Source: Hyphomicrobiales bacterium (GTDB lineage Bacteria > Pseudomonadota > Alphaproteobacteria > Rhizobiales > Xanthobacteraceae). From it: a stretch of DNA of 64,000 bases. The translations under genes and the position numbers were made by a program. Below, piece by piece: positions 29,303 to 48,094 of the stretch (position 1 is the stretch's first letter; each line of letters begins with the position of its first letter). The notes under the pieces were generated by a model, which searched no databases, was not told the DNA's origin, and saw only the letters and a program-made list of their open reading frames with translations. Location: contig JACESF010000018.1 in the NCBI GenBank assembly GCA_013911975.1, positions 453-64,452 on the forward strand, in the 5' to 3' direction.

Positions 29303-30261
29303 TCGCCCCTCCCCCGCATGAGGCGCCGCGCGCTGGGGATCAGCCCGGCCGGCAGGAAGATCATCACCAGCATCATCACGAGGCCGAGCACCACGTGCTC
29401 ATAGTCCTGCAGCACCGTGAGCACCTGGGGCAGCAAGGTGAGCAGGGCCGCCCCGAAGATGCCGCCCAGGACCGAGCCCGCCCCGCCGAGCACCGCCATG
29501 GTGACGAGCTCGATGGAATGCATGAAGCCGGCGACGTCGGGCGTGATCAGGCGGTTCTGCAAGGCGAGCAGCGAGCCCGCCACCGAGGCATAGACGGCGG
29601 AGATGACGAAGGCGTTCAGCTTCGCCCGCGCCACGTCCACCCCGGCCGTGCGCGCCGCCACCTCCGAGCCGTGGAGCGCCCGCAGCGCCCGCCCTGTGGG
29701 GCTGTCCCGCAGGTTCAGCGCCAGCCAGGCGCCCGCCAGCAAGACCAAGCCGGTGAAGGCATACCAAAACTGCGGATTGGTGAGCGTGAGGCCCAGCGTG
29801 CCGAGCCATTCGCGGATGCCGGGATCCGGCACCTTGATGCCGTCCGGCCCGCCCGTGATGTGCCCCTCATTGGAGAGCACCATGGCCACCAGCACGCCAA
29901 AGCCGAGGCTCGCCACGGCGAGGTAATAGCCTTTCAGCCGCAGGATGGGACGGCCCACCCCATAGGCGATGACGCCCGAGAGCGCGGCGCCGAGCACCAC
30001 GGCGAGGGCGGGCGGCACGCCGAAATGCACCGGCAGCAGCGCGCAGGCATAGCCGCCGATGCCGATGAACCCCGCATGGCCCAGGCTGATCTGCCCCGCA
30101 TAGCCGGTGAGGATGACGATGCCCACCACGGCGATGGAATTGACGAAGACCAGCGAGCCGACGCGGTAATAATAATTGGACGGGAAGAAGAACGGGCTGG
30201 CGATCATCAGCGTCGCCAGGACCAGGAGGGTGGCCTGCTTGGAGGAGAGGCGCATGGTCAC
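29299..30261 (-). CDS. Branched-chain-type ABC permease, LivM type (second system)
   Basis: 320-aa polytopic protein. GQISLGHAGFIGIGGY motif. GTG at 30261 (overlaps the livH-type stop) or ATG at 30255. Confidence 0.88.
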   Translation of the reverse strand: MTMRLSSKQATLLVLATLMIASPFFFPSNYYYRVGSLVFVNSIAVVGIVILTGYAGQISLGHAGFIGIGGYACALLPVHFGVPPALAVVLGAALSGVIAYGVGRPILRLKGYYLAVASLGFGVLVAMVLSNEGHITGGPDGIKVPDPGIREWLGTLGLTLTNPQFWYAFTGLVLLAGAWLALNLRDSPTGRALRALHGSEVAARTAGVDVARAKLNAFVISAVYASVAGSLLALQNRLITPDVAGFMHSIELVTMAVLGGAGSVLGGIFGAALLTLLPQVLTVLQDYEHVVLGLVMMLVMIFLPAGLIPSARRLMRGRGE

Positions 30262-31130
30262 ACCCGCTCCACCGGATTGCTGCCATAGAGGCCGCGTGGA
30301 AAGGCGAACAGCACCGCCAGGATGACGAAGAAGGCCACCGCGTCCTTGTAGTGGGAGGAGATGTAGCCCGCCGTCAGCGCCTCCATGAGGCCGAGCAGCA
30401 GGCCGCCCGCGAGCGCCCCCTTGGGGTTGCCCATGCCGCCCAGCATGGCGGCGGCGAAGCCCTTCAGCGCCAGGGAGATGCCCGCCTCGAAGCTGGTGGG
30501 CAGGATGGGGGTGATGAGCACGCCCGCCAGCGCGCCGATGGCGGCGGACAGGGCGAAGGAGAAGGTCATCACGAACCGGGTGTTGATGCCCACGAGCTGG
30601 GCGGCCAGCCGGTTGTTGGAGGTGGCGAGCACCGCCCGGCCGGTGAGGGTGCGCGTGAAGAACAGCCAGAGCGCGACGAAGATGGCCACCGCGCCCGCCA
30701 CCACCCAGAGGCTCTGGGGCAGCACCGTGGCGCCGAAGACGTGGAGCGGCGTGTCACCCGAGAAGGACGGCAGCCGGTGCAGGCCCTTGCCCAGGAGGAT
30801 CTGGGTGACGCCCCGGATGAAGATGGACGCGCCGATTGTGATGATGATGAGCGACACGACAGGCGCACCGCGCGCGGGCTCTATGGCGAAGGTGTTCAGC
30901 GCGACGCCGATGGCGGCGGTCCCCGCGATGGCGATCAGCGCCGCCAGGGGCAAAGGCAGCCCGGCGGCGACCCCGGCCACGGAGATCATGCCCCCCAGCA
31001 TCACGAACTCGCCCTGGGCGAAGTTCACCACGTCGGAGGCGTTGTAGATGATGGTGAAGCCGAGGGCGACGAGCGCATAGACCGCGCCCACCGTCACCCC
31101 GGAGGCCAGGAACTGAAGCAGATCGGACAT
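30258..31130 (-). CDS. Branched-chain-type ABC permease, LivH type (second system)
   Basis: ATG at 31130. MSDLLQFLASGVTVGAVYALVALGFTIIYNASDVVNFAQGEF. Confidence 0.88.
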   Translation of the reverse strand: MSDLLQFLASGVTVGAVYALVALGFTIIYNASDVVNFAQGEFVMLGGMISVAGVAAGLPLPLAALIAIAGTAAIGVALNTFAIEPARGAPVVSLIIITIGASIFIRGVTQILLGKGLHRLPSFSGDTPLHVFGATVLPQSLWVVAGAVAIFVALWLFFTRTLTGRAVLATSNNRLAAQLVGINTRFVMTFSFALSAAIGALAGVLITPILPTSFEAGISLALKGFAAAMLGGMGNPKGALAGGLLLGLMEALTAGYISSHYKDAVAFFVILAVLFAFPRGLYGSNPVERV

Positions 31131-31268
31131 GGTTCGCTCGCTCCTCGCGGGCGGTTCGAGGCGGCGCACGCCGGGTGGCGCGGGCGCGGGGACTGTCGCT
31201 GCGGGGGAGGGGCGCCCGGCGCGCGTCCGCGATGGTTGCGGGACGGCGCCGGTGCGCGGGCGCTAGTG

Positions 31269-32414
31269 CTAGTTCACCAGCTTCCAGCCGCCATTGCTGA
31301 TCTCCAGCATGCGGAAGGCGGACAGGTCGAGGCCGAGATGGTCGGTCTTAGAGAAGCTGTAGGTGCCCGTGGTGCCCACGAGGCCGATGGTGCCCTCGAT
31401 GGCGTCGCGGATGGCCGCCGGCTTGGCGGAGGGGGCCTTCGCCATGGCCTGGGTGAGGATCAGCATGGCGTCGTGGGCGTAGCCGCCGAAGGTGGAGACC
31501 GGCGCCCCGCCGGCCGCCTTCTCGAAGCTCGCTTTGTAGGCGAGCACCACGGGCTTCTGCGGGTCCTTGGGGTCCAGCAGGTCGCCCACCAGGAGCGCGG
31601 TGCCGGGCAGGCGCACGCCCTCGGCATTCTTGGCGCCCGACAGCTCGATGAAGGCGTTTGAGGCGACGCCGTGGGACTGGTAGAGCGGCAGGGTGATGCC
31701 GAGCTGGGCGTAGTTGCGGGTGATGGTGGCCGGACCCTGGCCGAAGCCCGTGTTGAGGATCGCCTGGATGCCCGGCTTGTTGCGGATGTTGGTGAGCTGC
31801 GGGGTCATGTCCGCATCCTTCGGGCCGTAGGTCTCGTCGGCCACGATGTCGATGCCGGAGGCCTTGGCCACCGCCAGGCACTGGGTGCGCATGGAGGCGC
31901 CGAACCCGTCGGTGCCGGAGATCAGGCCCACCTTGGTGAGGCCGCGCGCCTTCATGTCCGCGAAGATCTTCTGGCAGGCCATGCGGTCGGTGTGCGGGGT
32001 CTTGAAGACGAACGGCTTCACCGGATCGATGATCTCGATGGCGCCCGCCAGCGAGATGAACGGCACCTTGCTCTCCTCGGCCACCGCGAGGATGGCCAGC
32101 GAGGTGCCCGTAGTGGTGCCGCCCACCATGGCGGCGACCTCGTCGTCCTCCACGAGGCGCGTGGCGAAGGTCTTGGCCTTCGAGGGATCGCCGCCGTCGT
32201 CATAGAGGACGAGCTTGATCTTCTCGCCCTTGATGCCGCCCTTGGCGTTCAGCTCGTCCACCATCATGCGGATGGTCTTGGCCTCGGGGTCGCCCAGCGA
32301 AGAGGCCGGGCCGGTTTCCGAGACGACGGCGCCGATCTTGACGTCGGCGATGGCGGTGGTGGCCGTGACCGAGGCCGTCATGGCCAGCGCCAGCATGCCC
32401 GCTGCAATCCTCAT
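31269..32414 (-). CDS. Periplasmic solute-binding protein, Leu/Ile/Val-binding family (second system)
   Basis: ATG at 32414 after GGGAGGA. Signal MRIAAGMLALAMTASVTATTAIA. KIGAVVSETGPASSLGDPE...NAKGGIKGEKIKLVLYDDGGDP. Confidence 0.9.
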   Translation of the reverse strand: MRIAAGMLALAMTASVTATTAIADVKIGAVVSETGPASSLGDPEAKTIRMMVDELNAKGGIKGEKIKLVLYDDGGDPSKAKTFATRLVEDDEVAAMVGGTTTGTSLAILAVAEESKVPFISLAGAIEIIDPVKPFVFKTPHTDRMACQKIFADMKARGLTKVGLISGTDGFGASMRTQCLAVAKASGIDIVADETYGPKDADMTPQLTNIRNKPGIQAILNTGFGQGPATITRNYAQLGITLPLYQSHGVASNAFIELSGAKNAEGVRLPGTALLVGDLLDPKDPQKPVVLAYKASFEKAAGGAPVSTFGGYAHDAMLILTQAMAKAPSAKPAAIRDAIEGTIGLVGTTGTYSFSKTDHLGLDLSAFRMLEISNGGWKLVN

Positions 32415-32498
32415 CCTGTGTCCTCCCTGGCTTTGCGGTGCGCCTCCGGTTCCGTCGGGCCGCGCGGGATGGGGGTGCACGGTCGGCGGTGGGGTGCC

Positions 32499-32534
32499 CG
32501 TTCGATCTTTTATCGATAGATCGTTCGATCTTTT
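32499..32534. promoter_or_regulatory. Tandem candidate TetR operators upstream of the second liv-type operon
   Basis: CGTTCGATCTTTT occurs twice, 23 bp apart (32499-32511 and 32522-32534). The second copy is part of the palindrome AGATCGttCGATCT (32518-31). Confidence 0.5.
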
Positions 32535-32695
32535 TAATGCAGGTCTAATTCCATTTCCAGCGGAATCTGTGGCGCCCTGCCGCTGCGGGATCGGCGCTGA
32601 TATCCGTGGCAATTCAGGGATTTATCTCTTCAATTGCGGATATTTGCGGAGGGTGCCGTCGTCAAAAATCCGCGAGATGACAGCGGTGACGACCC

Positions 32696-32774: not shown

Positions 32775-34052
32775 ATGCCGCATGCCGCCATGACCGAAGC
32801 CGCAGGCACACGGGACTACAGCGCGCTGATCGAGCCCGCGCGCGTCAACAGCCGTCTCTATTACGATCCGGCGATCTTCCAGGAGGAGTTGGAGAAGATC
32901 TGGTACCGCACCTGGGTCTATGTGGGGCACACCAGCGAGATTCCGAACAAGAACGACTACGTCACCAAGTCCATCGGACCCATGCCGGTGCTGATGGTGC
33001 GCGACAAGGAAGGCGAGGTCCGCCTCCTGCTCAACAAGTGCCCCCATCGCGGCAACCAGCTCTGCGCCTACCAGAAGGGCAACCGCACGAGCTTCACCTG
33101 CCCCTACCATTCATGGACCTTCTCCAATACCGGCGACCTCATGGGCTATGCCCTGCCGGACGGCTATGAGGGCCAGAGCAAGGCCGGGCTCAATCTCGGC
33201 AAGGTGCCGCGCATCGCCATCTATCGCGGCTTCGTCTTCGGCTCCATGGCGGCGGACGGCCCGTCCCTGGAGGAGCATCTCGGCGGCGCCAAGGGGGCGC
33301 TCGACCAGCTCCTCGACAACTCGCCCACCGGCGAACTGGATCTGAGCGCCGGCTTCCTCCAGCACCGCACCAAGGCGAACTGGAAGTTCATGCTCGAGAA
33401 CGAGACCGACGGATACCATCCCGGCTTCGTCCACGGCTCGGTCTTCCAGGTGACCAGTTCGGGCATCGGCAATCTCTACGGCTCCGACTCCACCGCGCTC
33501 ACCCGCGACTATGGCAACGGCCACACCGAGTTCGACCTGCGCCCGGAATGGCGCAAGAACGACAAGCCGCTGCAATGGTTCGGCACCACGCCCGAGCGCC
33601 TGCCGGACTATGTGAAGGCCATGAACGCGGCCTATGGCGAGGAGAAGGCCCGCCGGATCATGATCGACGGCTCGCCGCACGTGATGATCTTCCCGAACCT
33701 GTTCATCGCCGAGATTCAGATCTTCGTGCTCCAGCCCATGGCGGTGGACGAGACCATCCAGCACGTCACCGCCGTCCAGTTCAAGGGCGCGCCGGACATC
33801 AACCGGCGCCTGCGTCAGCAGACCATGGGCTCGGTGGGCCCGGCGGGCCTGCTGCTCGCGGACGACACGGAGATGTACGAGCGCAACCATCGCGGCTCGC
33901 AGATCCGCGATCCCGAATGGCTGGTGCTGAGCCGCGGCCTCCATCGCGAGCGGCTGGACGAGGACGGCTTCCGCATCGCTCATTCCACCGACGAGACGCC
34001 GCAGCGCGGCATCTGGCGCCACTATCTCAACCTCATGACCGAGGCCCGCTGA
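32775..34052 (+). CDS. Rieske non-haem iron aromatic ring-hydroxylating dioxygenase, alpha subunit
   Basis: Rieske motif CPHRGNQLC...CPYHSW. Mononuclear Fe ligands in ENETDGYHPGFVHG. 425 aa. AGAGGGG RBS. Confidence 0.92.
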   Translation: MPHAAMTEAAGTRDYSALIEPARVNSRLYYDPAIFQEELEKIWYRTWVYVGHTSEIPNKNDYVTKSIGPMPVLMVRDKEGEVRLLLNKCPHRGNQLCAYQKGNRTSFTCPYHSWTFSNTGDLMGYALPDGYEGQSKAGLNLGKVPRIAIYRGFVFGSMAADGPSLEEHLGGAKGALDQLLDNSPTGELDLSAGFLQHRTKANWKFMLENETDGYHPGFVHGSVFQVTSSGIGNLYGSDSTALTRDYGNGHTEFDLRPEWRKNDKPLQWFGTTPERLPDYVKAMNAAYGEEKARRIMIDGSPHVMIFPNLFIAEIQIFVLQPMAVDETIQHVTAVQFKGAPDINRRLRQQTMGSVGPAGLLLADDTEMYERNHRGSQIRDPEWLVLSRGLHRERLDEDGFRIAHSTDETPQRGIWRHYLNLMTEAR

Positions 34053-34621
34053 TGACCGCCCTCGCCCCCTCCGGCGCGCCGGGCCGCGCCGCCGCCCCGA
34101 GCCCTACCGCCCCGAGCCTCGCCGGGCAGGACCTCGCCGCCATGGACGCGGTCGCCCTGCACCATCAGGTGGCCCAGTTCCTCTATCTGGAGGCCCGCCT
34201 CGCCGACACCCACGACTATGACGGCTGGGAGAGCCTCTGGACCGAGGACGCCATCTACTGGGTTCCCGCCAATGGCGAGGACACCGATCCCGAGAAGGAG
34301 ATGTCGGTCCTCTACGACAACCGCTCGCGCATCGGCGTGCGCATCCGCCAGCTCAAGACCGGGCGCCGCCACACTCAGACGCCCCGCTCCGAACTTGCCC
34401 GCGTCGTCTCCAACATCGAGGTGGCGGCGATCGAGGGGAGCGAGGTGGAGGTGCGCGCCAACGTCCTGATCTACGAGGACAATCTGCGGGGCGATACGCT
34501 CTGGGCGGCGCGCAACACCTATCGCCTGCGCAGCACCGAGAGCGGCTTCCGCCTCGTGCGCAAGAAGATCGCGCTGGTGAACAACCACAAGCCCATCTTC
34601 ACCCTGTCCTTCCTGGTCTGA
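34052..34621 (+). CDS. Ring-hydroxylating dioxygenase beta (small) subunit
   Basis: ATG overlaps the alpha-subunit stop (TGATG). FLYLEARLADTHDYDGWESLWTEDAIYWVP...YDNRSRIGVRIRQLKTG is the typical NTF2-like beta subunit pattern. Confidence 0.88.
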   Translation: MTALAPSGAPGRAAAPSPTAPSLAGQDLAAMDAVALHHQVAQFLYLEARLADTHDYDGWESLWTEDAIYWVPANGEDTDPEKEMSVLYDNRSRIGVRIRQLKTGRRHTQTPRSELARVVSNIEVAAIEGSEVEVRANVLIYEDNLRGDTLWAARNTYRLRSTESGFRLVRKKIALVNNHKPIFTLSFLV

Positions 34622-34629: not shown

Positions 34630-35454
34630 ATGTCTGAACTTCCTGAAGCGGCCGCGGCCGAGAGCTGGATCGGCGAGGGGCCGGTCCTGCTGGACTATGC
34701 CGACGGCGTCGCCACCCTCACGCTCAACCGGCCCGACGCCGCCAACGGCATGAATATCGAGCTCATGCAGGCGCTCTACCGGGCCATCATGGTGGTGCAC
34801 CGCTCGCCCCAGGTGCGGGTGCTGCACCTGCGGGGCGCGGGCGCCAATTTCTGCGCGGGTGGCGACGTGCGCGAGTTCGCCGCCAAGGGCGAGGCCCTCG
34901 GTGACTTCCTGCGGGAGGTGACCGCCTATCTCCAGGTGGCGGTCGGGGCGCTCATCCGCCTCAACGCGGTCGTGGTCACGGAAGTGCACGGCTATGCGGC
35001 GGGCGGCGGCGGCCTCGGCCTCGTCTGCGCCTCCGACATCGTGATCGCGGGGGAGGGCGCGAAATTCCTCGCCGGGGCGACCCGCGTGGGCATGGCGCCC
35101 GATGGCGGCGCCTCGGTCATCCTGCCCCATCTGGTGGGCTTCCGCCGGGCCGCCGAGATCATGCTGTCCAACCGCATCGTGGATGCCGCCGAGGCCCTGT
35201 CCATCGGCCTCGTCACCCGCACCGCGCCGGACGACGCGCTCCGGGACGAGGCGCGCAAGGCCGCGCGCTTCTATGCCTCCGGCGCGCCCCTGGCGCTGGC
35301 CGCCACCAAGCGGCTCCTGTGGAACGCGCTGGACGTGGAGCGGGCCTTGCCGGAGGAGGCGCGCACCGTCTCCGAACTGTCCTTCACCGCCGATTCCCGC
35401 GAGGGGCTCGCGGCGGTGATCGGGAAGCGCAAGCCCGTCTTCACCGGCCGATGA
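34630..35454 (+). CDS. Enoyl-CoA hydratase/isomerase (crotonase) family protein
   Basis: LTLNRPDAANGMN, GAGANFCAGGDV, oxyanion-hole region HGYAAGGGGLGLVCASDIVIA and G..PDGGAS. Confidence 0.88.
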   Translation: MSELPEAAAAESWIGEGPVLLDYADGVATLTLNRPDAANGMNIELMQALYRAIMVVHRSPQVRVLHLRGAGANFCAGGDVREFAAKGEALGDFLREVTAYLQVAVGALIRLNAVVVTEVHGYAAGGGGLGLVCASDIVIAGEGAKFLAGATRVGMAPDGGASVILPHLVGFRRAAEIMLSNRIVDAAEALSIGLVTRTAPDDALRDEARKAARFYASGAPLALAATKRLLWNALDVERALPEEARTVSELSFTADSREGLAAVIGKRKPVFTGR

Positions 35455-36191
35455 GCGCGTCCGCCCCCGGCGCGCGCCGCGCGCTCGTCACCGGAGGCGG
35501 CGCCGGCATCGGCGCCGCCATCGTCCGCAGGCTCGGTGCCGACGGCTGCGCCGTGGTGTTCTGCGATCGCGACGCCCCGGCGGGGACCGAGCTCGCGGTG
35601 GAGACCGGCGCGACTTTCGTGCACATGGACGGCACCGACGCAGAAGCGGCGGGCGCCCTGTTCCGCGCCCATGGGCCGTTCGACGTGCTGGTGAACAATA
35701 TCGGCGCCGACCAGCACGCCTTCTTCACCCAGACCAATGCCGAGGACTGGCGCTTCCTGCTGTCGGTCAATCTGGAGACGGCCTTCCTCTTCACCCGCCT
35801 CGCCTTGCCCGCCATGCAGGGGGCGGGCTGGGGGCGGCTGGTGAACGTCGCCTCGGAGGCCGGGCGGCTCGGGTCCAAGGGCGGGTCGGTCTATGCGGCG
35901 GCGAAAGCGGGGCTGATCGGCTTCACCCGCTCCATCGCGCGTGAGAACGCCCGCTACGGCATCACCGCAAATGCGGTGGCTCCGGGACCCATCCATACCC
36001 CCATGGTGGAGCGGGCGGTGGCCGAGGTGGGCGAGAAGATCCTCGCCGACATGGCCGCCCTCACGCTGCTGCGCCGCCTGGGCGAGCCGCGCGAGGTGGC
36101 GGCGGCGGTGGCCTTCCTCGCCTCGCAGGACGCCGCCTTCATCACCGGCGAGGTGCTGGGCGTCTCCGGCGGCATGGGCTGCGGGGCCTGA
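35451..36191 (+). CDS. SDR-family oxidoreductase (3-hydroxyacyl-CoA or dihydrodiol dehydrogenase candidate)
   Basis: ATGA overlap with the crotonase stop. TGGGAGIGAA, NNIG, catalytic S...YAAAK and a PGPI motif. Confidence 0.88.
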   Translation: MSASAPGARRALVTGGGAGIGAAIVRRLGADGCAVVFCDRDAPAGTELAVETGATFVHMDGTDAEAAGALFRAHGPFDVLVNNIGADQHAFFTQTNAEDWRFLLSVNLETAFLFTRLALPAMQGAGWGRLVNVASEAGRLGSKGGSVYAAAKAGLIGFTRSIARENARYGITANAVAPGPIHTPMVERAVAEVGEKILADMAALTLLRRLGEPREVAAAVAFLASQDAAFITGEVLGVSGGMGCGA

Positions 36192-36238: not shown

Positions 36239-36553
36239 ATGACCCGGATCGTCTTCGTCACGCCCGACAGCCGCCGCATCGAGATTGATGCGCAGGACGG
36301 GCTCAGCGTCATGGAATGCGCCCGCCGCGCCAATGTGCCGGGCATCGTGGCCGAATGCGGCGGTGCCTGCTCGTGCGCCACCTGCCACGTGCATGTGGAC
36401 CCCATTTGGCGCGAAGCCGTGGGAGAGGCGGCCGGCATGGAGCGCGACATGCTGGAATTCGCCGACGACGTGCGCGACTGCTCCCGCCTGTCCTGCCAGG
36501 TGAAGGTGGCGCCGAGCCTGGACGGCCTTACGGTTCACCTGCCGTCGGTTTAA
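36239..36553 (+). CDS. [2Fe-2S] ferredoxin, putidaredoxin/adrenodoxin type
   Basis: 104 aa. Cys ligand pattern ECGGACSCATCHV ... SRLSCQV. Confidence 0.9.
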   Translation: MTRIVFVTPDSRRIEIDAQDGLSVMECARRANVPGIVAECGGACSCATCHVHVDPIWREAVGEAAGMERDMLEFADDVRDCSRLSCQVKVAPSLDGLTVHLPSV

Positions 36554-36638: not shown

Positions 36639-37760
36639 ATGCCGGGCCCCCTTGCGGGACTTCGTATCATCGAGATCGTCGGCCTCGGGCCGGGCCCCTT
36701 CGCCGCCATGATGCTGGCGGATGCGGGGGCCGAGGTGATCCGCGTCCACCAGAAGGGACAGCGTCCCGACCTCCCGATCCTGAACACCCGCTTCGACGTG
36801 CTGGCGCGCGGGCGCAGGTCTATCGCCCTCGACCTGAAGGCCGCGTCCGATCTCGCCGTGATGCGTGACCTCGTCGCTCGCGCGGACGGGCTGATGGAGG
36901 GGTTCCGCCCCGGCGTGATGGAGCGCCTGGGGCTGGGGCCGGAGGTTTGCCTCGCCCTCAACCCCCGCCTCGTCTATGGCCGCATGACCGGCTGGGGCCA
37001 GGAGGGGCCGCTGCGGGACGTGGCGGGGCACGATCTCAACTATCTCGGCATGACGGGCGCCCTCGCGGCCATGGGGCCGGCGGACCGGCCCCCGCCCGTG
37101 CCGCTGAACCTCGTGGCCGATTTCGGCGGCGGCGGCATGCTCATGGCCTTCGGCATGGTGGCGGCGCTGCTGGCGGCGCGCGGCTCGGGCACCGGCCAGG
37201 TGGTGGACGCCGCCATGACGGACGGCGCCTCGCTGCTCGCCGCCATGTTCTGGGGCTTCCGCGCGGGCGGCCTGTGGAGCCCCGAGCGGCATGCGAACCT
37301 GATCGACGGCGGCGCCTATTTCTACGGCACCTATACGTGCGCCGATGGGAAGTTCCTCGCGGTGGCGCCCATGGAGGGCAAGTTCCACCGCATCTTCATC
37401 GAGCGGCTGGGCCTGGATGCGGCCGAGTTCACCCATGGGGCCGATCCCGCCGCTTGGGGGCGGCTGCGCGCACGCCTCGCGGCCCTCTTCCTGACCGAGC
37501 CGCGGGACCATTGGACCGCCCTGTTTGCGGGCACGGATGCCTGCGTGTCTCCGATCCTGGACTGGGACGAGGCGGCCGCCGATCCGCATGCGGTGGTCCG
37601 GGACGCTTTCGTCAGCGTGGACGGCGTGGTGCAGCCCGCGCCCGCGCCGCGCTTTTCCGCCACCCCGTCCACCATCGCCCACGGCCCGGCGGCGCCGGGC
37701 GCGCATGGGCGGGAGATCCTCGTGGACTGGGGCCTCGATCCCGCGCGGCTCGACGCCTGA
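36639..37760 (+). CDS. Family III CoA-transferase fold protein (CaiB/BaiF), alpha-methylacyl-CoA racemase-like
   Basis: GLRIIEIVGLGPGPFAAMMLADAGAEVIRV, GFRPGVMERLGLGPE, LVYGRMTGWGQEGP and AGHDLNY are motifs I associate with the MCR/AMACR branch. GGAGAG RBS. Confidence 0.8.
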   Translation: MPGPLAGLRIIEIVGLGPGPFAAMMLADAGAEVIRVHQKGQRPDLPILNTRFDVLARGRRSIALDLKAASDLAVMRDLVARADGLMEGFRPGVMERLGLGPEVCLALNPRLVYGRMTGWGQEGPLRDVAGHDLNYLGMTGALAAMGPADRPPPVPLNLVADFGGGGMLMAFGMVAALLAARGSGTGQVVDAAMTDGASLLAAMFWGFRAGGLWSPERHANLIDGGAYFYGTYTCADGKFLAVAPMEGKFHRIFIERLGLDAAEFTHGADPAAWGRLRARLAALFLTEPRDHWTALFAGTDACVSPILDWDEAAADPHAVVRDAFVSVDGVVQPAPAPRFSATPSTIAHGPAAPGAHGREILVDWGLDPARLDA

Positions 37761-37856: not shown

Positions 37857-38768
37857 TCAGAGGGCGCGCAGGAAGGCGCCGATGCGCGCGAGGGAGAGGG
37901 CGGTCTCGGGCAAGTCCTCGAACACCTGGAAGTGGTGGCACATGCCCGCGAACACCTCGACCTCGACGCGGGTGCCCTGTGCGGACGCGTTGCGGGCCAG
38001 GAGGTGGCTGTCGTCCAGCGTGATGTCGTGGCCGCCCGCATGGACGAGAATGGGCGGCAGGCCGGACAGATCCCCCAGGACCGGCGAGGCGGCCGGGTCA
38101 GAGGGCGATCGCTCGCGCCCCAGATAGGTGCGCGCCATGGCCTTGAGCTGTTCCGGGCGGGAGAAGATGTCCTGTGTGGCCAAGGCGGTGTAGCTCTCGC
38201 CGCCCATGGTCAGGTCGAGCCAGGGCGAGAGCAGGACCAGCGCCTTCGGCAGCGCGAGGCCCGCATCGCGCGCCCGCATGGCGGTGCCGAGCGCGAGCGC
38301 CCCGCCGGCGGAATCCCCCGCGAGGGCGAGCGGTACGTGCCCAGCCTCCACCAGCGCCCGGTAGGCGGTGAAGGCATCGTCGGGCGCCGCCGGAAAGCGG
38401 TGCTCGGGCGCGAGACGGTAGTCGAACCCGATGACCCGCGTGCCGCTGGCCGCCGCAAGGCGCGCCATGAGCCCGGCATGGGACCGCACCGAGCCGATCT
38501 GGAAGCCGCCGCCATGGCAATAGAGCACGGTGCGCCCTGGCGTTTCGGTCGCGTCCGCACCCTCGAAGGCGCAAGCGGGCAGGCCCGCCAAGGTGAGGGG
38601 TGTCGAGCGGGTCCCGGGCGGTGCGTCGTCCAGGAAGGTCTCGAAGCTGGCGCGGATCTCGGCGAGCGTCATGCCCGCCGCCCAGGCGGAAGTGGCGGCC
38701 GCGATGCGGGCGCGCACCCGCGCGAAGGGGGTGTCGTCCTCGGCCAAGTGGGGCGGGGGCCGGGTCAT
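37857..38768 (-). CDS. Alpha/beta-hydrolase, hormone-sensitive-lipase-type esterase
   Basis: Oxyanion HGGGF and nucleophile elbow GDSAGG. Lies downstream of, and co-oriented with, the CoA ligase gene. Confidence 0.85.
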   Translation of the reverse strand: MTRPPPHLAEDDTPFARVRARIAAATSAWAAGMTLAEIRASFETFLDDAPPGTRSTPLTLAGLPACAFEGADATETPGRTVLYCHGGGFQIGSVRSHAGLMARLAAASGTRVIGFDYRLAPEHRFPAAPDDAFTAYRALVEAGHVPLALAGDSAGGALALGTAMRARDAGLALPKALVLLSPWLDLTMGGESYTALATQDIFSRPEQLKAMARTYLGRERSPSDPAASPVLGDLSGLPPILVHAGGHDITLDDSHLLARNASAQGTRVEVEVFAGMCHHFQVFEDLPETALSLARIGAFLRAL

Positions 38769-38809: not shown

Positions 38810-40135
38810 TCAGTGCGCCGCTTCAGGCCGATGCAGCACGCGCGTCGCCTTGGCCTCGTAGCGCGGCAGCGCGCCTTCCGTGTGGCATTCCACGTTCACG
38901 TTGATGCCGAGGCGCGCCTTGATCTCGCGGCGCACGTCGGCTGCCGCGTCGGCGCCGGGGCGCTGCGTGCTGCCGACGGATTCCACCGCCACCGTCATCT
39001 TGCCGATGGTGGTGGCCTCCTTGTCCACATAGATCTGCCACGCCTCCTTCGCGAGGCCGGGAATGCCGGCGATCACGTCCTCGATCTGCGAGGGGAAGAC
39101 GATCACGCCCTTGAACTTAATCATGTCGTCGGTGCGGCCGATGATCCGGCCGATCTTGCGCATGCCACGACGGCCGGACGGGCAGTCATAGGGGCGTGGG
39201 GACAGGCGCACGAGGTCTCGGGTGCGCCAGCGCACCACGGGCGAGGCTTCCTTGCGCAAGGTGGTGATGACGATCTCGCCCACCTCGCCCTCCGAGACCG
39301 GCTTCATGGTCTTGGGGTCCAGGATTTCGACGATGATGCTGTCCTCATTGAGGAGCTGCAGCTCGTCGTCCGCATGGGTGAAGGGCGTCGAAATGGCGAG
39401 GACGGGGCCGCCCGCCTCGGTGGTGCCGTAGATGTTCTGGCTCATGAAGCCGGCCGGCATCTCCGCTTCGAGCTGGGCGCGGAATTCCGCCGAGACCGAC
39501 TGGCCGCCGAGAATGGCCACCTTGAGCGTCCATTCGGTGCGCGGGTCGATGCCCTGGTTCTTGGCGGCCTGCACCAGCGTCATCAGCCACAGAGGCGACA
39601 TGGAGGCGACGTCATAGGCGTGGTCGCGCAGCCAGCGGGCGGCCAGCTCGCCGCGCCCGGGGCCGATGGGGAAGTTGGTGCAGCCCACGGCCGAGAAGCC
39701 GGCATCCAGCGCAGGGCCGCCGATCCACAGGCCGTAGCCGTAGCCCTGATAGGCGCGGTAGCCGGGCTGCACGCCGGCGGCGGTGAGCAGGCGGCCCATC
39801 TGGTAGGGCAGCAGGTCGTAATAGTCGCTCTTCGTCATGCCGAAGGTGACCGGCAGGCCGGTGGTGCCGGACGTGGCGACGAAGCGCTCCACCTTCTCCA
39901 TGGGCACGGTGAGGAAGGGGAAGGGATAGCGGTCGCGCAGCAGCGACTTGTCCATGAGGGGCGCGTTGGCGAGGCCGTCCTCGGCGGCGAGGTCCTCCGG
40001 CTTCATGCCGGCCTGCGCGAAATGATCCTTCCAGGCGTCGCACTGCGCCAGGCGGGCGCCGAGGCCCGCGAGGCCCTCGCGCTGGATCTTCAGAATTGCG
40101 TCGCGGTCGAGCGACTCCACCTCAGGATGCTGCAT
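38810..40135 (-). CDS. Aryl-acid CoA ligase, phenylacetate-CoA ligase (PaaK) family
   Basis: ATG at 40135 after GGGAGGGAGG. ~441 aa. ATSGTTGLP P-loop, YGTTE, ..RWRTRD and GRTDDMIKFKGV, with a short N-terminal domain typical of the PaaK-like subfamily. Confidence 0.85.
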   Translation of the reverse strand: MQHPEVESLDRDAILKIQREGLAGLGARLAQCDAWKDHFAQAGMKPEDLAAEDGLANAPLMDKSLLRDRYPFPFLTVPMEKVERFVATSGTTGLPVTFGMTKSDYYDLLPYQMGRLLTAAGVQPGYRAYQGYGYGLWIGGPALDAGFSAVGCTNFPIGPGRGELAARWLRDHAYDVASMSPLWLMTLVQAAKNQGIDPRTEWTLKVAILGGQSVSAEFRAQLEAEMPAGFMSQNIYGTTEAGGPVLAISTPFTHADDELQLLNEDSIIVEILDPKTMKPVSEGEVGEIVITTLRKEASPVVRWRTRDLVRLSPRPYDCPSGRRGMRKIGRIIGRTDDMIKFKGVIVFPSQIEDVIAGIPGLAKEAWQIYVDKEATTIGKMTVAVESVGSTQRPGADAAADVRREIKARLGINVNVECHTEGALPRYEAKATRVLHRPEAAH

Positions 40136-40229: not shown

Positions 40230-40323
40230 CGCCGATTTTGATCTGCATCAATTCCAGGGCGTGCCGGGTGCCGTGCACCGTCCGAAAAATCGGTGGGGAC
40301 GCGCATGCGGAATGTCCCTGGGC

Positions 40324-40364
40324 TTGGCACCGGAGGGCTTCGCGACTATAGACCGAATGATCGG
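40324..40364 (+). promoter_or_regulatory. Sigma70-like promoter of the TetR gene with overlapping operator
   Basis: TTGGCA (40324-29), 17-nt spacer, TATAGA (40347-52). AGACCGAATGATCGG (40350-64) overlaps the -10. Confidence 0.55.
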
Positions 40365-40387
40365 AAAATTTTTGCAGGTATGACGCC

Positions 40388-41071
40388 GTGGCGAGAACGC
40401 GCTCAGCCGAATACGACAATATTCACGATACCATACTTGAGCGGGCCGCGTCGGTATTCGCGCGGCGTGGCTATGCCGCCACTTCCATCGGCGACATCGC
40501 GGAAGCGTGCGAATGCTCCAAGTCGCGCCTGTATCATTATTTCACCTCCAAGGAGGCGATCCTATCCGACATGCTGACGTCGCATGTGGAGAATCTCCTC
40601 ATGAAGTGCCGGCACACCCTCTATGGCTACCAGGACCCGGAGGAGCGCTTCCGCCAGCTCACCCGCCTGTTCCTGGAAGTCTATTCGGTCTCCCGTGACC
40701 AGCATGTGGCCCTGCTCACCTGCGCGGAATTCCTCGCCCCCGAAACCCGCAAGGTGCTGGTGGCCAAGCAGCGGGAGCTGATCGCCTATGTGCGCGACAT
40801 CCTGCTCCAGCTCCGCCCCGACCTCGCCAGGGATTCCACCATGGCCCATGTGGACACCATGCTGTTCTTCGGCATGATCAACTGGACCTACACTTGGTAC
40901 CACGCGGACGGCGCGGTGACGCCGGGCGAGGTGGCCGACCGCACCGTGGACCTGTTCGTGAACGGCTACGCCCATGTGGCCGGCGCAAAGCCCGCCGACG
41001 CCAATGGCGGCGAGGCTCGCCCGGCGGGCCGTCCGGCCGCCCGGCCCGAAGGCCGCGCCGCCAAGGAGTGA
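40388..41071 (+). CDS. TetR-family transcriptional repressor
   Basis: GTG start. HTH ILERAASVFARRGYAATSIGDIAEACECSKSRLYHYFTSKEAIL. Low-complexity Ala/Arg/Pro tail. Confidence 0.88.
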   Translation: MARTRSAEYDNIHDTILERAASVFARRGYAATSIGDIAEACECSKSRLYHYFTSKEAILSDMLTSHVENLLMKCRHTLYGYQDPEERFRQLTRLFLEVYSVSRDQHVALLTCAEFLAPETRKVLVAKQRELIAYVRDILLQLRPDLARDSTMAHVDTMLFFGMINWTYTWYHADGAVTPGEVADRTVDLFVNGYAHVAGAKPADANGGEARPAGRPAARPEGRAAKE

Positions 41072-41077
41072 GGGGCC

Positions 41078-42298
41078 TCAGGCCGCCGGGCGCCGCATGC
41101 GCGCCACGGGGTCGAAGCCCTCTCGCGACGCCTCGTCGAGGGAAACGGCGATGCCGCCCTCCAGCATCTTCTTCGCCGCCATGTAGGTCCGGGCGTCGTT
41201 GATGGCGTCCACGGCGATCATCCGCCCGTCTCGGAAATACCAGAAGGATTGGCCCCGCTCCGAGGGGCGGCGGAGCACCGCGTCATAGCCCCGGTTGAGG
41301 CCGACGATCTGGAGCTTGGCATCATACTGGTCGGACCAGAACCACGGCACCGGCGCATAGGCGCGGGGCCGGCCCAGCATGTCGTCAGCGGCGCATTCCG
41401 CCTGGTCCACCGCATTCTGCACGCTCTCCAGCCGCGTGGGGAGGCCGTCCAGCGGGAAGGCCGCGCAATCGCCTGCCGCCCAGATGCCCGCCGCCGAGGT
41501 GCGGCCGTGCCGATCCACGAGGATGCCGTTGTCGCAGGCGATCCCGGCGGCGCGGGCGAGTTCGTCGCGCGGCAGCACGCCGATGCCCACGAGCACAGCG
41601 TCCACCTCGATGCGCGTGCCGTCGTCCAGCCGCACGGCCGCCACGGCGCCGTCGCGTGCCTCCACCTCGGCGACGCCGCGCCCCTCCAGGATGCGCACCC
41701 CGTGCCCGGCATGCAGCGCGCGGATGGCGTCCGAAGTCTGCGCGCAGGCCACGCGCTCCAGGATGCGGGGGCCCCGCTCCACCACCGTGACGGTAAGGCT
41801 CGCCCTGGCCGCCACCGCCGCCGTCTCCAGGCCCACATAGCCGCCGCCCAGCACCAGGAGGCGCCGGCCGGGGCGGATCTCGCCTGCCAGCCGGTCCACG
41901 TCCGCGAGGCTGCGCAGTTCGAATACGCCCCGCAGCCCGGTGAATACAGGCGGCAGCGGACGCGGTCGCGTGCCGGTGGCGAGCGCCAGCTTGGTCCAGC
42001 CCACCGTGCACCCGTCCACCTGGAGCGTGCGGGCGTCGGGGTCGATGGAGGTGACCGCCGTCCCCGTTACCAGTTCCACGCCCAGGTCGGCCCAGAATTC
42101 CCGCGGCCGGAGATAAAGCCGATCAACCGTCCATTCCCCTTTTAGGTAGGCCTTGGAGAGGGGCGGGCGCTGGTAGGGCGGGTGCGGCTCGTCGCCATAA
42201 AGCGTCAGCACGCCGGAATAACCGCCATCGCGCAAGTGTATGGCGAGGGAGGCGGCGGCCTGTCCGGCGCCGACGATGACGATGTGCTCCTGGCTCAT
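41078..42298 (-). CDS. FAD/NAD(P)H ferredoxin reductase (putidaredoxin-reductase type)
   Basis: VIVGAGQAA, YQRPPLSKAYL, second dinucleotide fold LLVLGGGYVGLETA, and AAGDCA. Confidence 0.9.
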   Translation of the reverse strand: MSQEHIVIVGAGQAAASLAIHLRDGGYSGVLTLYGDEPHPPYQRPPLSKAYLKGEWTVDRLYLRPREFWADLGVELVTGTAVTSIDPDARTLQVDGCTVGWTKLALATGTRPRPLPPVFTGLRGVFELRSLADVDRLAGEIRPGRRLLVLGGGYVGLETAAVAARASLTVTVVERGPRILERVACAQTSDAIRALHAGHGVRILEGRGVAEVEARDGAVAAVRLDDGTRIEVDAVLVGIGVLPRDELARAAGIACDNGILVDRHGRTSAAGIWAAGDCAAFPLDGLPTRLESVQNAVDQAECAADDMLGRPRAYAPVPWFWSDQYDAKLQIVGLNRGYDAVLRRPSERGQSFWYFRDGRMIAVDAINDARTYMAAKKMLEGGIAVSLDEASREGFDPVARMRRPAA

Positions 42299-42316
42299 GC
42301 CGCCTCTCTCCCGTTA

Positions 42317-42344
42317 TTTACAGATCGAACGTTCTGGTTATTAT
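42317..42344 (+). promoter_or_regulatory. Sigma70-like promoter of the HMGCS-DUF35/thiolase operon with operator in the spacer
   Basis: TTTACA (42317-22), 16-nt spacer, TATTAT (42339-44). AGATCGAACGTTCT (42322-35) fills the spacer. Same layout as the ligase promoter. Confidence 0.6.
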
Positions 42345-42415
42345 AGCGCACAAATGGCGCTGGCAATCGGCTTTTCCGCCGACCCGCCGCACGCAGAACA
42401 AGGCGAGGAAACAGG

Positions 42416-43861
42416 GTGACGGGCATCACAGCGATCGCAATCCACCTGCCGCGCCTGCGCCTTCAGCGCGCCAGCATGGCCGCCGCCATGGACTGGCTGA
42501 CGCCCCGGTCCGAGGCGCGCGGCGCGCGCAGCCTCGCCTTCTGGGACGAGGACCCCGTGACCATGGGGGTGGCCGCCGCCCGGGACTGCCTCGCGCAGGT
42601 GCCGGACGCCCGCGCCGCCGTGCGCCGCCTCGCCTTTGCCACCACAACCCCGGTCTTCGCCGAGCCGCAGCAGGCGAGCCTCCTCCATGCCGCGCTGCGC
42701 CTGCCCGAGCGGACGCTGGCGCAGGACACGGCCGGCACGCCGCGCTGCGGGCTTCTCGCCGTGCAGGCGGCCCTGGAAGGGGCGGGCCCGGCCCTGGTGG
42801 TTGCCGCCGACATGCCGGTGAGCACGCCGGGCTCGCTGGCGGAATCCCGCCACGGCGACGGCGCGGCCGCCCTTCTGGTGGGTGGCGGACCGGCGCGTCT
42901 GGCCTATCGCGGCGGCGCCAGCCTCTCCGCCCCCTTCATCGAGCGCTACCGCGCCGCCGACCGCCCCCTCGCCACCGATTGGGAGGAGCGCTGGGTGCGG
43001 GAGGAAGGGGTTCTCGACTTCGTGCCCCGCGCCATCGCCGAAGCCCTTGCCACGGCGGGCCTCGGGCCGGGCGAGGTGCAGCATCTGGTCCTGCCCTGCG
43101 TCATTCCCGGCGCGGCCAAGGCCGTGGCGCAGGCGTTGGGCCTCGCGCACGTCCGCCTCGCGTCGGGCCTCGAAGCCGAATGCGGCGATACCGGTGCCGC
43201 CCATGCCCTGGTGATGCTGGCCCGGACCATGGAGGCCATGCGGCCTGGGGAGCGCGTCGTGGTGGCGCAGTTCGGCCAGGGCGCGACCGCCCTGGTCCTG
43301 GAGGCGACCGCCGCCATTTCCGCGCATCCCCCCGGCGCTTCTGCGGCGCTCGCGGCGGGCATTCCGGAGACCAATTATTTGAAGCTCCCCGTCTTCCGGG
43401 GTCTGCTGCCCTGGGAGCGCGGCCTGCGCGGCCGCCTGCCGGTGAACGAGGCGCTGACCACGGCCTACCGCAATTCCGAGGCGCTGCTGGGCTTCGTGGG
43501 CGGGCGGAGCCCGCAGACCGGGCAGGTGCAGTTCCCGCCCTCCCGCCTCGCCGTGGCCGAAGCGGGGCATTTCGATGCGCCCCAGGAGCCCTGGCCCCTG
43601 GCGGACCTCGGCGGCACGGTGGCCACCGCCACCGCCGACCGGCTCGCCTTCTCGCGCAGCCCGCCCAATTGCTACGGCCTCGTGGACATTCCCGGCGGCG
43701 CGCGCCTGATGATGGACTTCACGGACCCCGACGCGGTGCGCCTCGCGCCCGGCGATGCGGTGCGCTTCGTCTTCCGCATCAAGGACATGGACGAGCGCAC
43801 CGGTTACCGGCGCTATTTCTGGAAGGCAGTCGCGGCATCCGCGCTGCCGGCCGCGGCTTGA
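42416..43861 (+). CDS. Fusion protein: HMG-CoA-synthase/KAS-III-like thiolase-fold domain + C-terminal DUF35 OB-fold domain
   Basis: GTG start. The N-terminal ~330 aa has an HMGCS-like layout (FATTTPVFAEPQQAS, GTPRCGLLAVQAAL, QHLVLPCV, GDTGAA). The C-terminal ~130 aa (GGRSPQTGQVQFPPSRL...GTVATAT...GLVDIPGGARLMMDFTD...GDAVRFVFR) matches DUF35, but all four zinc-ribbon Cys positions are replaced. Confidence 0.7.
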   Translation: MTGITAIAIHLPRLRLQRASMAAAMDWLTPRSEARGARSLAFWDEDPVTMGVAAARDCLAQVPDARAAVRRLAFATTTPVFAEPQQASLLHAALRLPERTLAQDTAGTPRCGLLAVQAALEGAGPALVVAADMPVSTPGSLAESRHGDGAAALLVGGGPARLAYRGGASLSAPFIERYRAADRPLATDWEERWVREEGVLDFVPRAIAEALATAGLGPGEVQHLVLPCVIPGAAKAVAQALGLAHVRLASGLEAECGDTGAAHALVMLARTMEAMRPGERVVVAQFGQGATALVLEATAAISAHPPGASAALAAGIPETNYLKLPVFRGLLPWERGLRGRLPVNEALTTAYRNSEALLGFVGGRSPQTGQVQFPPSRLAVAEAGHFDAPQEPWPLADLGGTVATATADRLAFSRSPPNCYGLVDIPGGARLMMDFTDPDAVRLAPGDAVRFVFRIKDMDERTGYRRYFWKAVAASALPAAA

Positions 43862-43878
43862 ACGAAAGGCGACGCGCG

Positions 43879-45072
43879 ATGGCCAGGGGAATCAAGGACA
43901 GGGTCGCCATTCTCGCCATGGGCTGCTCGCGTTTCGGCGAGCGGTGGGACGTGGGCCAGGAAGAGCTGATGGCCGAGGCCTATCTGGAGGCCCTGCGCCA
44001 TGCGGGCATCGCCCCGGCCCAGATCGAGGCCGCGTGGTACTCGTCCCATTACGACGATATCGGCGCGGGCAAGGCGGGCACGCCCATGGCCCAGGCGTTG
44101 CGCCTGCCCGCCATCGGCGTCACCCGGGTGGAGAATTTCTGCGCGGGCGGCACCGAGGCGTTCCGGGGTGCGGTCTATGCGGTGGCCTCGGGCGCGGTGG
44201 ACATCGCGCTCGCCATGGGGGTGGAGAAGCTCAAGGACACGGGGTTCGCGGGCCTTCCGCCCGCCTCGCGCGGCACGCTGGCGCCCATGTACCTGCCCAC
44301 CCACACCAATCCGGGCAATTTCGCCCAACTCGCCCGCGCCTACGGCGCGCGGCACAACATCTCCTACGACGACCTGAAGCGGGCCATGGGGCACACCTCC
44401 ATGAAGAGCCACGCCAATGCGCTGAACAACCCCAATGCCCATCTGCGCAAGGCCATCACCGTGGAGCAGGCGGTCAACGCGCCCATGGTGGCCGACCCGC
44501 TCGGCCTGTTCGACTGCTGCCCGGTCTCGGACGGCGCCGCCTGCGCCATCGTCACCACGCCGGAGATCGCCCGCAGCCTCGGCAAGGCGCCGGTGCTGGT
44601 GAAGGCGATCCAGCTCGTGGCGTCCAACGGCTGGGAGGTGCAGCAGAGCGGCTGGAACGGCGCCTATGTCCACACCGCCCGCATCGCCGCGCGCCGCGCC
44701 TACCAGGAGGCGGGGATTGCGGATCCGCGCGCCCAGGTGAGCTTCGCCGAGCTGCACGACTGCTTCTCCATCACCGAATTGGTGACGCTGGAGGATCTCG
44801 GCCTCGCCGACGAGGGCACCGCCTGGAAGCGCATGCTGGACGGAGCCTTCGATGCGGACGGCGCGCTGCCCTGCCAGGTGGATGGCGGGCTGAAATGCTT
44901 CGGCCATCCGGTCGGCGCCTCGGGCCTGCGCATGCTCTACGAATGCTGGCTGCAGCTTACCGGGCAGGCGGGCGCGCGCCAGCTCGCGAACCCCAGCCTC
45001 GCCCTCACCCACAATCTGGGCGGCGCGCCGGCCCAGAACGTGTGCTCCATCACCCTTGTCGGTGCCGCCTGA
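43879..45072 (+). CDS. SCP-x/nonspecific lipid-transfer-type thiolase
   Basis: VENFCAGGTEAF (nucleophile Cys), CCPVSDGAA, GHPVGASGLRM and NLGG. 397 aa. Confidence 0.88.
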   Translation: MARGIKDRVAILAMGCSRFGERWDVGQEELMAEAYLEALRHAGIAPAQIEAAWYSSHYDDIGAGKAGTPMAQALRLPAIGVTRVENFCAGGTEAFRGAVYAVASGAVDIALAMGVEKLKDTGFAGLPPASRGTLAPMYLPTHTNPGNFAQLARAYGARHNISYDDLKRAMGHTSMKSHANALNNPNAHLRKAITVEQAVNAPMVADPLGLFDCCPVSDGAACAIVTTPEIARSLGKAPVLVKAIQLVASNGWEVQQSGWNGAYVHTARIAARRAYQEAGIADPRAQVSFAELHDCFSITELVTLEDLGLADEGTAWKRMLDGAFDADGALPCQVDGGLKCFGHPVGASGLRMLYECWLQLTGQAGARQLANPSLALTHNLGGAPAQNVCSITLVGAA

Positions 45073-45098: not shown

Positions 45099-45137
45099 CC
45101 CCGCCGCCCGGCCCGTGCCGGCGGCGGGGCTTTTTTC
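45099..45137 (+). terminator. Rho-independent terminator
   Basis: ccccgccgcc(c)gg / ccggcggcgggg GC stem, followed by cTTTTTTc, 27 nt after the thiolase stop. Confidence 0.7.
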
Positions 45138-45547
45138 ATTTGGCGCCACGGCAACGCGATCCCGCGCGGAGAGCCGCCTCTCCGCCATGGGGTCGACGAC
45201 CATAAATATTAAATCCATAAAATTGATAGATTTTAGGTTGACCGGAGCTTGCATCGTCCGCATCATGCTGCGGAGAAGTGGTGTGGCCGAGGATGGCCCG
45301 CCGCCGAGATGTGCCGGGCGATCGAGGTTTTCGAAGCGACCGGCTTGAGCGAGGCGCAGATGACATCGATCAGTCCGCCCCGGCACCCGTGTACGAGGGG
45401 CAGTGTCGCGCAGCCCTGACGGCTGCCTGCTGCCCGTACGCGCTTCTCCCTGTCTTCCATCCGTTTTCGAGAAGGCGCCGGCCTTGCCGGCGAACGCCCT
45501 CTTATGTCCGTCGCATCCCCTTTTCCCGTCCGCGAAGGAGCCCGCCC

Positions 45548-46108: not shown

Positions 46109-46123
46109 CGGCCGGAGTTTCCC

Positions 46124-47080: not shown

Positions 47081-47108
47081 ATTCTCCCCTGTTCGAGGAA
47101 CGATCCCC

Positions 47109-48065: not shown

Positions 48066-48094
48066 GCCCGCCCCCCTTTCCAAGGCACGTTTCC

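Follow-up and report, generated by a model that had tools for sequence, protein, structure and literature searches.

A 64,000-nucleotide (nt) stretch of contig JACESF010000018.1 (assembly GCA_013911975.1) from a Hyphomicrobiales bacterium of the Xanthobacteraceae, hereafter called the window, carries at positions 42416-45072 two adjacent forward-strand genes. The first (42416..43861, GTG start) codes for a 481-residue protein that joins a domain resembling 3-hydroxy-3-methylglutaryl-CoA synthase (HMGS, or HMGCS) to a DUF35 domain, and the second (43879..45072) for a 397-residue thiolase of the SCP2/archaeal type. We infer, with a probability of about 0.65, that the two proteins form a heteromeric thiolase, in which the 397-residue subunit thiolyses a 3-oxoacyl-CoA while the fusion protein acts as a non-catalytic scaffold, and that this complex performs the C-C-cleaving step of the catabolic gene cluster to which it belongs.

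In the proposed mechanism the thiolase would be the only catalyst, with Cys88 as the acyl-accepting nucleophile together with His293 of the HDCF motif and His343 of the GHP motif, and the reaction would be a CoA-dependent thiolysis (retro-Claisen cleavage). Its 481-residue partner would be a pseudoenzyme scaffold, composed of a PhlA-like HMGS fold devoid of the catalytic tetrad and of a DUF35 domain devoid of zinc ligands. By analogy with the archaeal thiolase/HMGCS/DUF35 complex, with PhlABC and MucABC, and with a complex of Pseudomonas fluorescens, the scaffold may hold and stabilize the thiolase and help shape the pocket for CoA and the substrate. A preliminary description of the locus had proposed that the pair removes a C2- or C3-CoA unit by retro-Claisen or retro-aldol chemistry, or else adds one; retro-Claisen thiolysis is the part that we favor, and both an IpfDE-like retro-aldol cleavage and a condensation are rated low.

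Domain Architecture of the Fusion Protein

The HMGS-like (PhlA-like) domain of the fusion protein has a thiolase fold and spans residues 1-330 (42416..43405). It is followed by a helix and a degenerate zinc ribbon, which make up the N-terminal part of DUF35 (residues 348-390; 43457..43585), and by the DUF35 OB-fold domain (residues 391-473; 43586..43834), as delimited by PF01796 and by alignment to the archaeal DUF35 chain 6esq_E, PhlB, and the DUF35 part of ChsH2. Two Pfam models match above their thresholds, ACP_syn_III_C, the C-terminal domain of KAS III (residues 211-292; 29.4 bits for a cutoff of 26.6), and OB_ChsH2_C, the DUF35 OB fold (PF01796; residues 399-454; 32.6 bits for a gathering score of 27.1), and the same scan gave no match to the zinc-ribbon model PF12172. 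The top NCBIfam model is the archaeal-type HMG-CoA synthase PRK04262 (residues 2-301, E 8.5e-27), at a score far under its cutoff. An identity as FabH (KAS III), a stand-alone protein of ~320 residues with a Cys-His-Asn triad, was rejected, as the FabH models reached 26 bits for a cutoff of 249 and the Cys and His positions are both occupied by Pro.

A family profile built from 16 homologs of the fusion protein matched PhlA (1.5e-38), the archaeal HMGCS 6esq_I (3.1e-30), and MucA (1.7e-26), and its last 125 positions matched the complete chain 6esq_E (positions 348-471 to chain residues 5-127; 6.3e-11). The folds closest to the AlphaFold2 (AF2) model of the fusion protein (pLDDT 82.5, pTM 0.87) are those of PhlA, MucA, and the archaeal HMGCS, with TM scores of 0.77-0.81 normalized on the target. 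The preliminary description had placed an HMGS-like domain and DUF35 on a single 481-residue polypeptide and had called for domain searches and a structure prediction; run on the fusion protein, these bear out the assignment, in that the C-terminal part is DUF35 and the N-terminal part is not an ordinary FabH. The N-terminus agrees residue for residue with those of homologs, and the GC content at third codon positions of the fusion gene (0.90), like that of the thiolase gene (~0.9), is normal for genes of this window, whose GC content is 70%. A look-up with the exact fusion protein of the window found no record.

The canonical Glu, Cys, His, and Asn (E-C-H-N) positions of HMGS are occupied by T78, P109, P227, and D258, respectively, in profile and pairwise alignments to 6esq_I, 5m3k_A, and 9skh_A, and neither the alignment to the archaeal enzyme nor that to PhlA has a gap around the catalytic motifs. 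The reference motif GSESHPY reads ATTTPVF in the window (Glu to T78), FACKAG reads GTPRCG (Cys to P109), VFHQP reads VLPCV (His to P227), and VGDAGS of PhlA reads CGDTGA (Asn to D258). A residue census covered 234 homologs (112 close ones, plus 122 representatives taken at 50% clustering). Apart from a single Glu, none of them retains the canonical residues, Cys and His being absent from these sites throughout (0/234); close homologs almost always have Pro at the His position, and the HMGS-like domain has no conserved Cys in the family. The preliminary description had seen plausible Glu, Cys, and His positions in the segments FAEPQQ, PRCG, and QHLVLP. This assignment does not survive alignment to 6esq_I and PhlA and the census, by which the residues concerned, E83, C111, and H223, are 5, 2, and 4 residues out of register, respectively; moreover, position 111 is not conserved (A in 65, C in 25, G in 13, and S in 9 of the 112 close homologs). 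Mutation of the E-C-H-N residues in the archaeal complex abolishes HMG-CoA synthesis (Liao et al., 2026; Nat Commun 17:2196; PMC12960953). Because the tetrad is replaced as in the non-catalytic PhlA and MucA, and because such mutations inactivate the archaeal enzyme, the HMGS-like domain is, judging from its sequence, a pseudoenzyme.

The loss of all four zinc-ligand Cys residues, claimed in the preliminary description, holds in alignments to the C-x2-C...C-x2-C motif of 6esq_E and to three homologs that keep it (P0115, P0118, and P0120; GGKCGKCG...ICVNPNC): the first to fourth Cys are replaced by S365, T368, A379, and G384. The sole Cys within the last 150 residues, C420 (PNCYG), is located in the OB fold, and the AF2 model still has short β strands in the ribbon, at 361-364, 379-381, and 384-386 (pLDDT ~80-87). 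Loss of the ligands is not peculiar to this gene and is common in the family. All four Cys are retained in just 3 of the 112 close homologs, the first Cys alone is kept in 68, and 23 have the S-T-A-G combination. The four-Cys motif is absent in 57 of 92 loci from different species and retained in 106 of 122 distant representatives (25-43% identity), and a rough neighbor-joining tree places its loss in at least three clades.

The Partner Thiolase

The thiolase gene begins 17 nt past the stop codon of the fusion gene, and its product, the predicted sole catalytic subunit, was recognized by Pfam Thiolase_C_1 (7.9e-37) and by NCBIfam PRK06157 (660 bits for a cutoff of 403), as expected from its initial description as an SCP2-type thiolase. 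Its best solved relatives are archaeal acetoacetyl-CoA thiolases (ACATs), SCP2-thiolases, and BbsB, and its match to the archaeal ACAT (1.5e-47) is much better than that to PhlC (7e-17). In alignments to the archaeal thiolase 6esq_A and to BbsB, Cys88 (ENFCAGG), His293 (HDCF), and His343 (GHP) fall on the catalytic residues. The catalytic Cys and the HDxF and GHx motifs occur together in 72 of 81 partner thiolases.

The thiolase gene is directly downstream of the fusion gene in approximately 70 of 80 species loci. Across these 80 loci, identity to the window proteins ranges from 60 to 93% for the thiolase and from 37 to 82% for the scaffold, and this better conservation of the thiolase would be expected if a catalytic subunit is combined with a structural partner that evolves faster.

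The two genes have the appearance of a two-gene unit, since a promoter-like site precedes them and a terminator-like hairpin follows them. The candidate sigma-70-like promoter (TTTACA-16-TATTAT, 42317..42344, forward strand) has 10 of 12 consensus matches, and the 117-nt region that separates the fusion gene from its divergent neighbor contains three promoter-like sites for 0.3 expected. The candidate intrinsic terminator (45112..45138, forward strand; hairpin at 45112-45128 followed by a T-run) lies 40 nt past the thiolase stop codon; like the promoter it is a consensus match only, and such hairpins are not more numerous than expected from shuffled sequences. No inverted-repeat operator was found in the intergenic regions 42299-42415 and 40331-40387. 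The sole RNA-like sequencing run yielded fragmentary contigs of a ~95% identical relative, none of which bridges the junction between the two genes. Contigs from a marine metagenome run (X1) match the window between 41000 and 45400 without differences. Among named genomes, the nearest are those of Xanthobacter autotrophicus, whose fusion protein is 82% identical, and Azorhizobium (85%), as fits an origin of the window from a Xanthobacteraceae-like organism.

Relationship to Characterized Complexes

One member of the fusion family has been characterized biochemically, the PfACAT/HMGS-DUF35 complex of P. fluorescens (Liao et al., 2026; PMC12960953). It has a fused HMGS-DUF35 without the E-C-H-N tetrad and an intact ACAT; it makes neither HMG-CoA nor acetoacetyl-CoA and cleaves acetoacetyl-CoA by thiolysis, an activity abolished by the H294Y substitution in PfACAT. 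The window pair resembles it, by its published description and residue numbering rather than by alignment, in its single HMGS-DUF35 polypeptide with the tetrad lost, and in an adjacent thiolase that keeps the Cys, HDxF, and GHx motifs, H294 of PfACAT corresponding to H293 here. Neither locus has genes for a polyketide synthase (PKS) or a non-ribosomal peptide synthetase (NRPS) in its vicinity. They differ in context: the P. fluorescens locus is minimal and is viewed by its authors as not yet recruited to a pathway, whereas the window pair and its subfamily sit in a conserved catabolic cluster with a Rieske oxygenase and a CoA ligase.

The archaeal complex has homologous counterparts of all three modules, as indicated by the profile matches given above, and the same thiolase catalytic residues. 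It consists of three proteins with an active HMGCS and a four-Cys zinc ribbon, and it is anabolic, serving mevalonate synthesis, while the window system would consist of two proteins with an inactive HMGS and no zinc ligands, in a catabolic setting. PhlABC (PpATase; 5MG5/5M3K) and MucABC (SmaATase; 9VBO/9VBT) share with it the tripartite logic of a non-catalytic HMGS-like subunit, a DUF35 subunit, and a thiolase-type partner, and PhlA and MucA are the closest solved relatives of the N-terminal domain of the fusion protein. However, PhlB is a separate protein that keeps its Cys ligands, PhlC and MucB lack the His of the HDxF motif, and both systems are Friedel-Crafts acyltransferases from secondary-metabolite clusters. 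BbsAB (benzoylsuccinyl-CoA thiolase; 7PXP) and IpfDE likewise combine an SCP2-type thiolase with a DUF35 partner in CoA-dependent pathways for aromatic acids, and BbsB shares the HDxF motif with the window thiolase. In these systems, in contrast, DUF35 is a small, separate protein and there is no HMGS-like module.

The Catabolic Cluster

The pair stands at the end of a cluster that extends from 27829 to 45072. Divergent from the fusion gene is a gene for an HcaD/AndAa-like ferredoxin-NAD+ reductase (41078..42298, reverse strand), which is also a neighbor of the pair in the homologous loci L005, L001, and L014-L017. It is followed, moving away from the pair, by genes for a TetR-family regulator (40388..41071, forward strand), a PaaK-like acyl-CoA ligase of the phenylacetate-CoA ligase family (38810..40135, reverse strand), an esterase of the hormone-sensitive lipase family (Abhydrolase_3; 37857..38768, reverse strand), a family III CoA-transferase (36639..37760, forward strand), and a 2Fe-2S ferredoxin (36239..36553, forward strand). 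The start of the ligase was set by its fit to homologs: the longest open reading frame reaches 40330 (506 residues), some 65 residues beyond the homologs (440-458 residues), and the likely initiator Met is at 40135 (MQHPEVESL...). Further along are genes for a FabG/BadH-like short-chain dehydrogenase/reductase (SDR; 35451..36191), a crotonase-family enoyl-CoA hydratase/isomerase (34630..35454), and the β (34052..34621) and α (32775..34052) subunits of a Rieske oxygenase, all on the forward strand. The stop and start codons overlap both between α and β, by 1 nt (TGATG at 34050-34054), and between crotonase and SDR (ATGA at 35451-35454), a sequence arrangement that suggests translational coupling in the oxygenase operon. 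The cluster is completed by a branched-chain-type ATP-binding cassette (ABC) uptake system (27829..32612, reverse strand) with two ATPases, two permeases, and a Peripla_BP_6 binding protein, an arrangement also found in locus L004.

Over 98% of its length, the α subunit of the Rieske oxygenase shares 42% identity with IpfA, which is encoded on the ibuprofen plasmid pIBU218; among solved structures it is matched best, mainly across residues 16-222, by IadD (9O71) of the Variovorax auxin locus. The link of the pair to ring-hydroxylating chemistry on CoA thioesters, made in the preliminary description, is strengthened by the kinship to IpfA. Neither reference locus is the counterpart of the cluster as a whole. 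The iad locus shares only the Rieske α subunit; it has no DUF35 or HMGS and possesses an amidase and a MarR regulator. In the ipf cluster, the thiolase, DUF35 protein, and ligase are not orthologous to those of the window. Apart from the thiolase (PRK06157), no cluster enzyme scored above the cutoff of an NCBIfam equivalog, no ring-cleavage dioxygenase is encoded within the window cluster, and literature searches found no publication on this combination of genes.

The set of Rieske oxygenase, crotonase, SDR, esterase, ligase, CoA-transferase, and TetR genes recurs in Hydrogenophaga, Pusillimonas, Rhizobium, Variovorax, Xanthobacter, Erythrobacter, Ferrovibrio, Rubrivivax, a metagenome contig, and Rhodococcus opacus. 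At times the cluster is condensed into a single operon (α-β-crotonase-SDR-esterase-fusion-thiolase); in L001, L008, and L013, which have this compact form, the fusion gene is immediately preceded by that for the esterase.

In the pathway that we propose, the ABC system would import an acid, the PaaK-like ligase would convert it to its CoA thioester, and the IadD/IpfA-like Rieske oxygenase would oxygenate the thioester. The crotonase, SDR, and esterase would then lead to a 3-oxoacyl-CoA, the predicted substrate of the thiolase complex. The relationship of the α subunit to IpfA and IadD and the PaaK type of the ligase suggest that the acid is probably arylacetic or arylalkanoic and is processed as its CoA ester. 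More tentatively, the subfamily linked to Rieske oxygenases might be responsible for cleaving a ring or a side chain in an aerobic "hybrid" pathway not described so far, in which CoA activation and Rieske oxygenation would be followed by crotonase, SDR, esterase, and thiolysis reactions without a ring-cleavage dioxygenase, and in which the inactive HMGS domain would provide a pocket for a bulky, ring-derived 3-oxoacyl-CoA.

Several points weigh against the proposed role of the pair. The window cluster has no acyl-CoA dehydrogenase to account for a 3-oxoacyl-CoA. As many as 75 of 92 family loci are not beside a Rieske cluster, which limits the pathway assignment to this subfamily. Thiolysis of acetoacetyl-CoA in vitro does not reveal a physiological substrate. 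Finally, the scaffold has strongly conserved charged residues, which could point beyond mere scaffolding.

On either side of the cluster lie genes of other types. Directly downstream (45278-50877) are genes for an FMN reductase, two tandem NMT1/SsuA-type binding proteins, a luciferase-like monooxygenase, a permease, and an ABC ATPase, an ssu-like set that probably serves the acquisition of sulfur from sulfonates and probably has no connection with the thiolase pair. On the other side, beyond the ABC transporter, are MdoG- and MdoH-like genes (23985-27709, reverse strand) for the biosynthesis of periplasmic glucans.

Alternative Functions

The pair might instead remove a side chain in the manner of IpfDE, with a Rieske-generated cis-dihydrodiol of an arylacyl-CoA yielding acetyl- or propionyl-CoA and a catechol by retro-aldol or retro-Claisen cleavage. 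The kinship of the Rieske α subunit to IpfA speaks for this possibility, as ipfA, ipfB, ipfD, ipfE, and ipfF are adjacent on pIBU218, and so does the occurrence of a ligase, a Rieske oxygenase, and a thiolase/DUF35 combination in one conserved cluster. We nevertheless consider it unlikely. The analogy with IpfDE, drawn in the preliminary description, proved weak: IpfD is just 29% identical to the window thiolase over 240 residues and has YDAF where the latter has HDCF, the equivalent His-to-Tyr change nearly abolishes thiolysis by PfACAT (Liao et al., 2026; PMC12960953), and IpfE has no detectable similarity to the DUF35 part of the fusion protein. In addition, the ipf cluster has no HMGS-like protein and includes bphC, whereas the window cluster lacks a dioxygenase for the cleavage of catechol rings, and the invariably accompanying crotonase and SDR would be left without a role. 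The YDAF of IpfD (pIBU218; positions 10933-12120 of locus L006), in place of the HDxF of true thiolases of this type, resembles the state of acyltransferase- or aldolase-type members and fits a non-thiolytic cleavage in ibuprofen degradation.

A function of the scaffold beyond support of the thiolase, namely a new activity not of the thiolase type or the binding of a substrate such as a ring-derived acyl chain, perhaps in conjunction with the esterase, appears less probable still. It would account for charged or aromatic positions that are invariant and peculiar to the fusion family (R110, W189, E190, R192, W193, R195, and, among close members, H263) and for the acidic residue at position 83 (E83 or Asp); at positions 83 and 110 this conservation extends to distant representatives. 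Nonetheless, Arg or Lys at position 110 and an acid at position 83 are also present in the non-catalytic PhlA and may be structural or contribute to CoA binding, the WEERW segment adjoins a low-confidence part of the AF2 model, and such a function is without precedent.

That the pair is a Friedel-Crafts-type C-acyltransferase, transferring acetyl from acetyl-CoA onto a carbon acceptor of a small molecule as PhlABC and MucABC do, is very unlikely. The HMGS-like domain is nearest to PhlA and MucA in sequence and fold, and it has lost the E-C-H-N tetrad in common with them, down to the Asp at the Asn position. The thiolase tells otherwise: it possesses the HDxF His that PhlC and MucB lack, and its match to the archaeal ACAT exceeds that to PhlC by 30 orders of magnitude. 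Its neighbors are catabolic or transport genes, with no PKS or NRPS nearby, and the fused complex of P. fluorescens did not act as an acyltransferase (Liao et al., 2026; PMC12960953).

The idea of a biosynthetic condensing complex, in which a 3-oxoacyl-CoA formed by the thiolase would receive a second acetyl unit through the HMGS-like domain to give an HMG-CoA-like product, channeled as in the archaeal complex with its three homologous modules, is hardly credible and appears largely refuted by the residue analysis, given the substitution of all four catalytic positions, the lack of a conserved Cys in the domain, the loss of HMG-CoA synthesis in archaeal E-C-H-N mutants, and the absence of HMG-CoA and acetoacetyl-CoA production by the P. 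fluorescens complex (PMC12960953).

Distribution and Significance of the Family

The fusion had at first been set apart from systems in which the modules are separate proteins, and a search of other genomes was suggested; by this search, the fusion is not unusual. Relatives of the fusion protein form 905 clusters in a word-indexed search, and an exhaustive search of representatives gave 942 at E<=1e-30. Of the 150 best, almost every one is a full-length fusion of 465-495 residues. A genome scan located relatives in at least 583 species genomes, chiefly of Alpha- and Betaproteobacteria; those in Rhodococcus are more distant. The published survey mined 1,030 bacterial HMGS/ACAT/DUF35 loci, of which 1,001 have no secondary-metabolism neighbors (Liao et al., 2026; PMC12960953). 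The fusion architecture is thus already known, and the window pair is a further member of a large, described family.

Some members are extended at their C-terminus by SDR, by SCP2 (in one or two copies), or by the two domain types together (P0128, 722 residues; P0132, 911 residues; P0149, 800 residues), which links the scaffold to the dehydrogenation of 3-hydroxyacyl-CoA and points to 3-hydroxy- and 3-oxoacyl-CoA chemistry. These extended fusions recall the peroxisomal proteins MFE-2 and SCPx. Distant paralogous pairs are located in clusters reminiscent of β oxidation, among genes for enoyl-CoA hydratase, SDR, acyl-CoA dehydrogenase, and electron-transfer flavoprotein; like the extended fusions, they speak for the thiolytic role proposed here. 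Other pairs have different surroundings. The pair lies by itself amid housekeeping genes both in Parvibaculum sedimenti (L031, ~9001-12400; glmU/glmS-like, TPR-SPOR, MBOAT) and in Caulobacter hibisci (L055, ~9001-12400; photolyase, DAHP synthase, epimerase); in these two genera it may serve as a general thiolase.

Relatives are named "OB-fold domain-containing protein" or "KAS III C-terminal domain-containing protein" at NCBI, and labels such as "HMG-CoA synthase" or "3-oxoacyl-ACP synthase III" are misleading for such fusion proteins. Many lineages can do without the zinc site of the DUF35 domain. In several bacterial groups, one subfamily has become part of a conserved catabolic cluster centered on an IadD/IpfA-like Rieske oxygenase, a finding at odds with the published proposal that such fused complexes represent evolutionary intermediates lacking a pathway. 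The substrate of this cluster, once found, would give these widespread complexes a physiological role.

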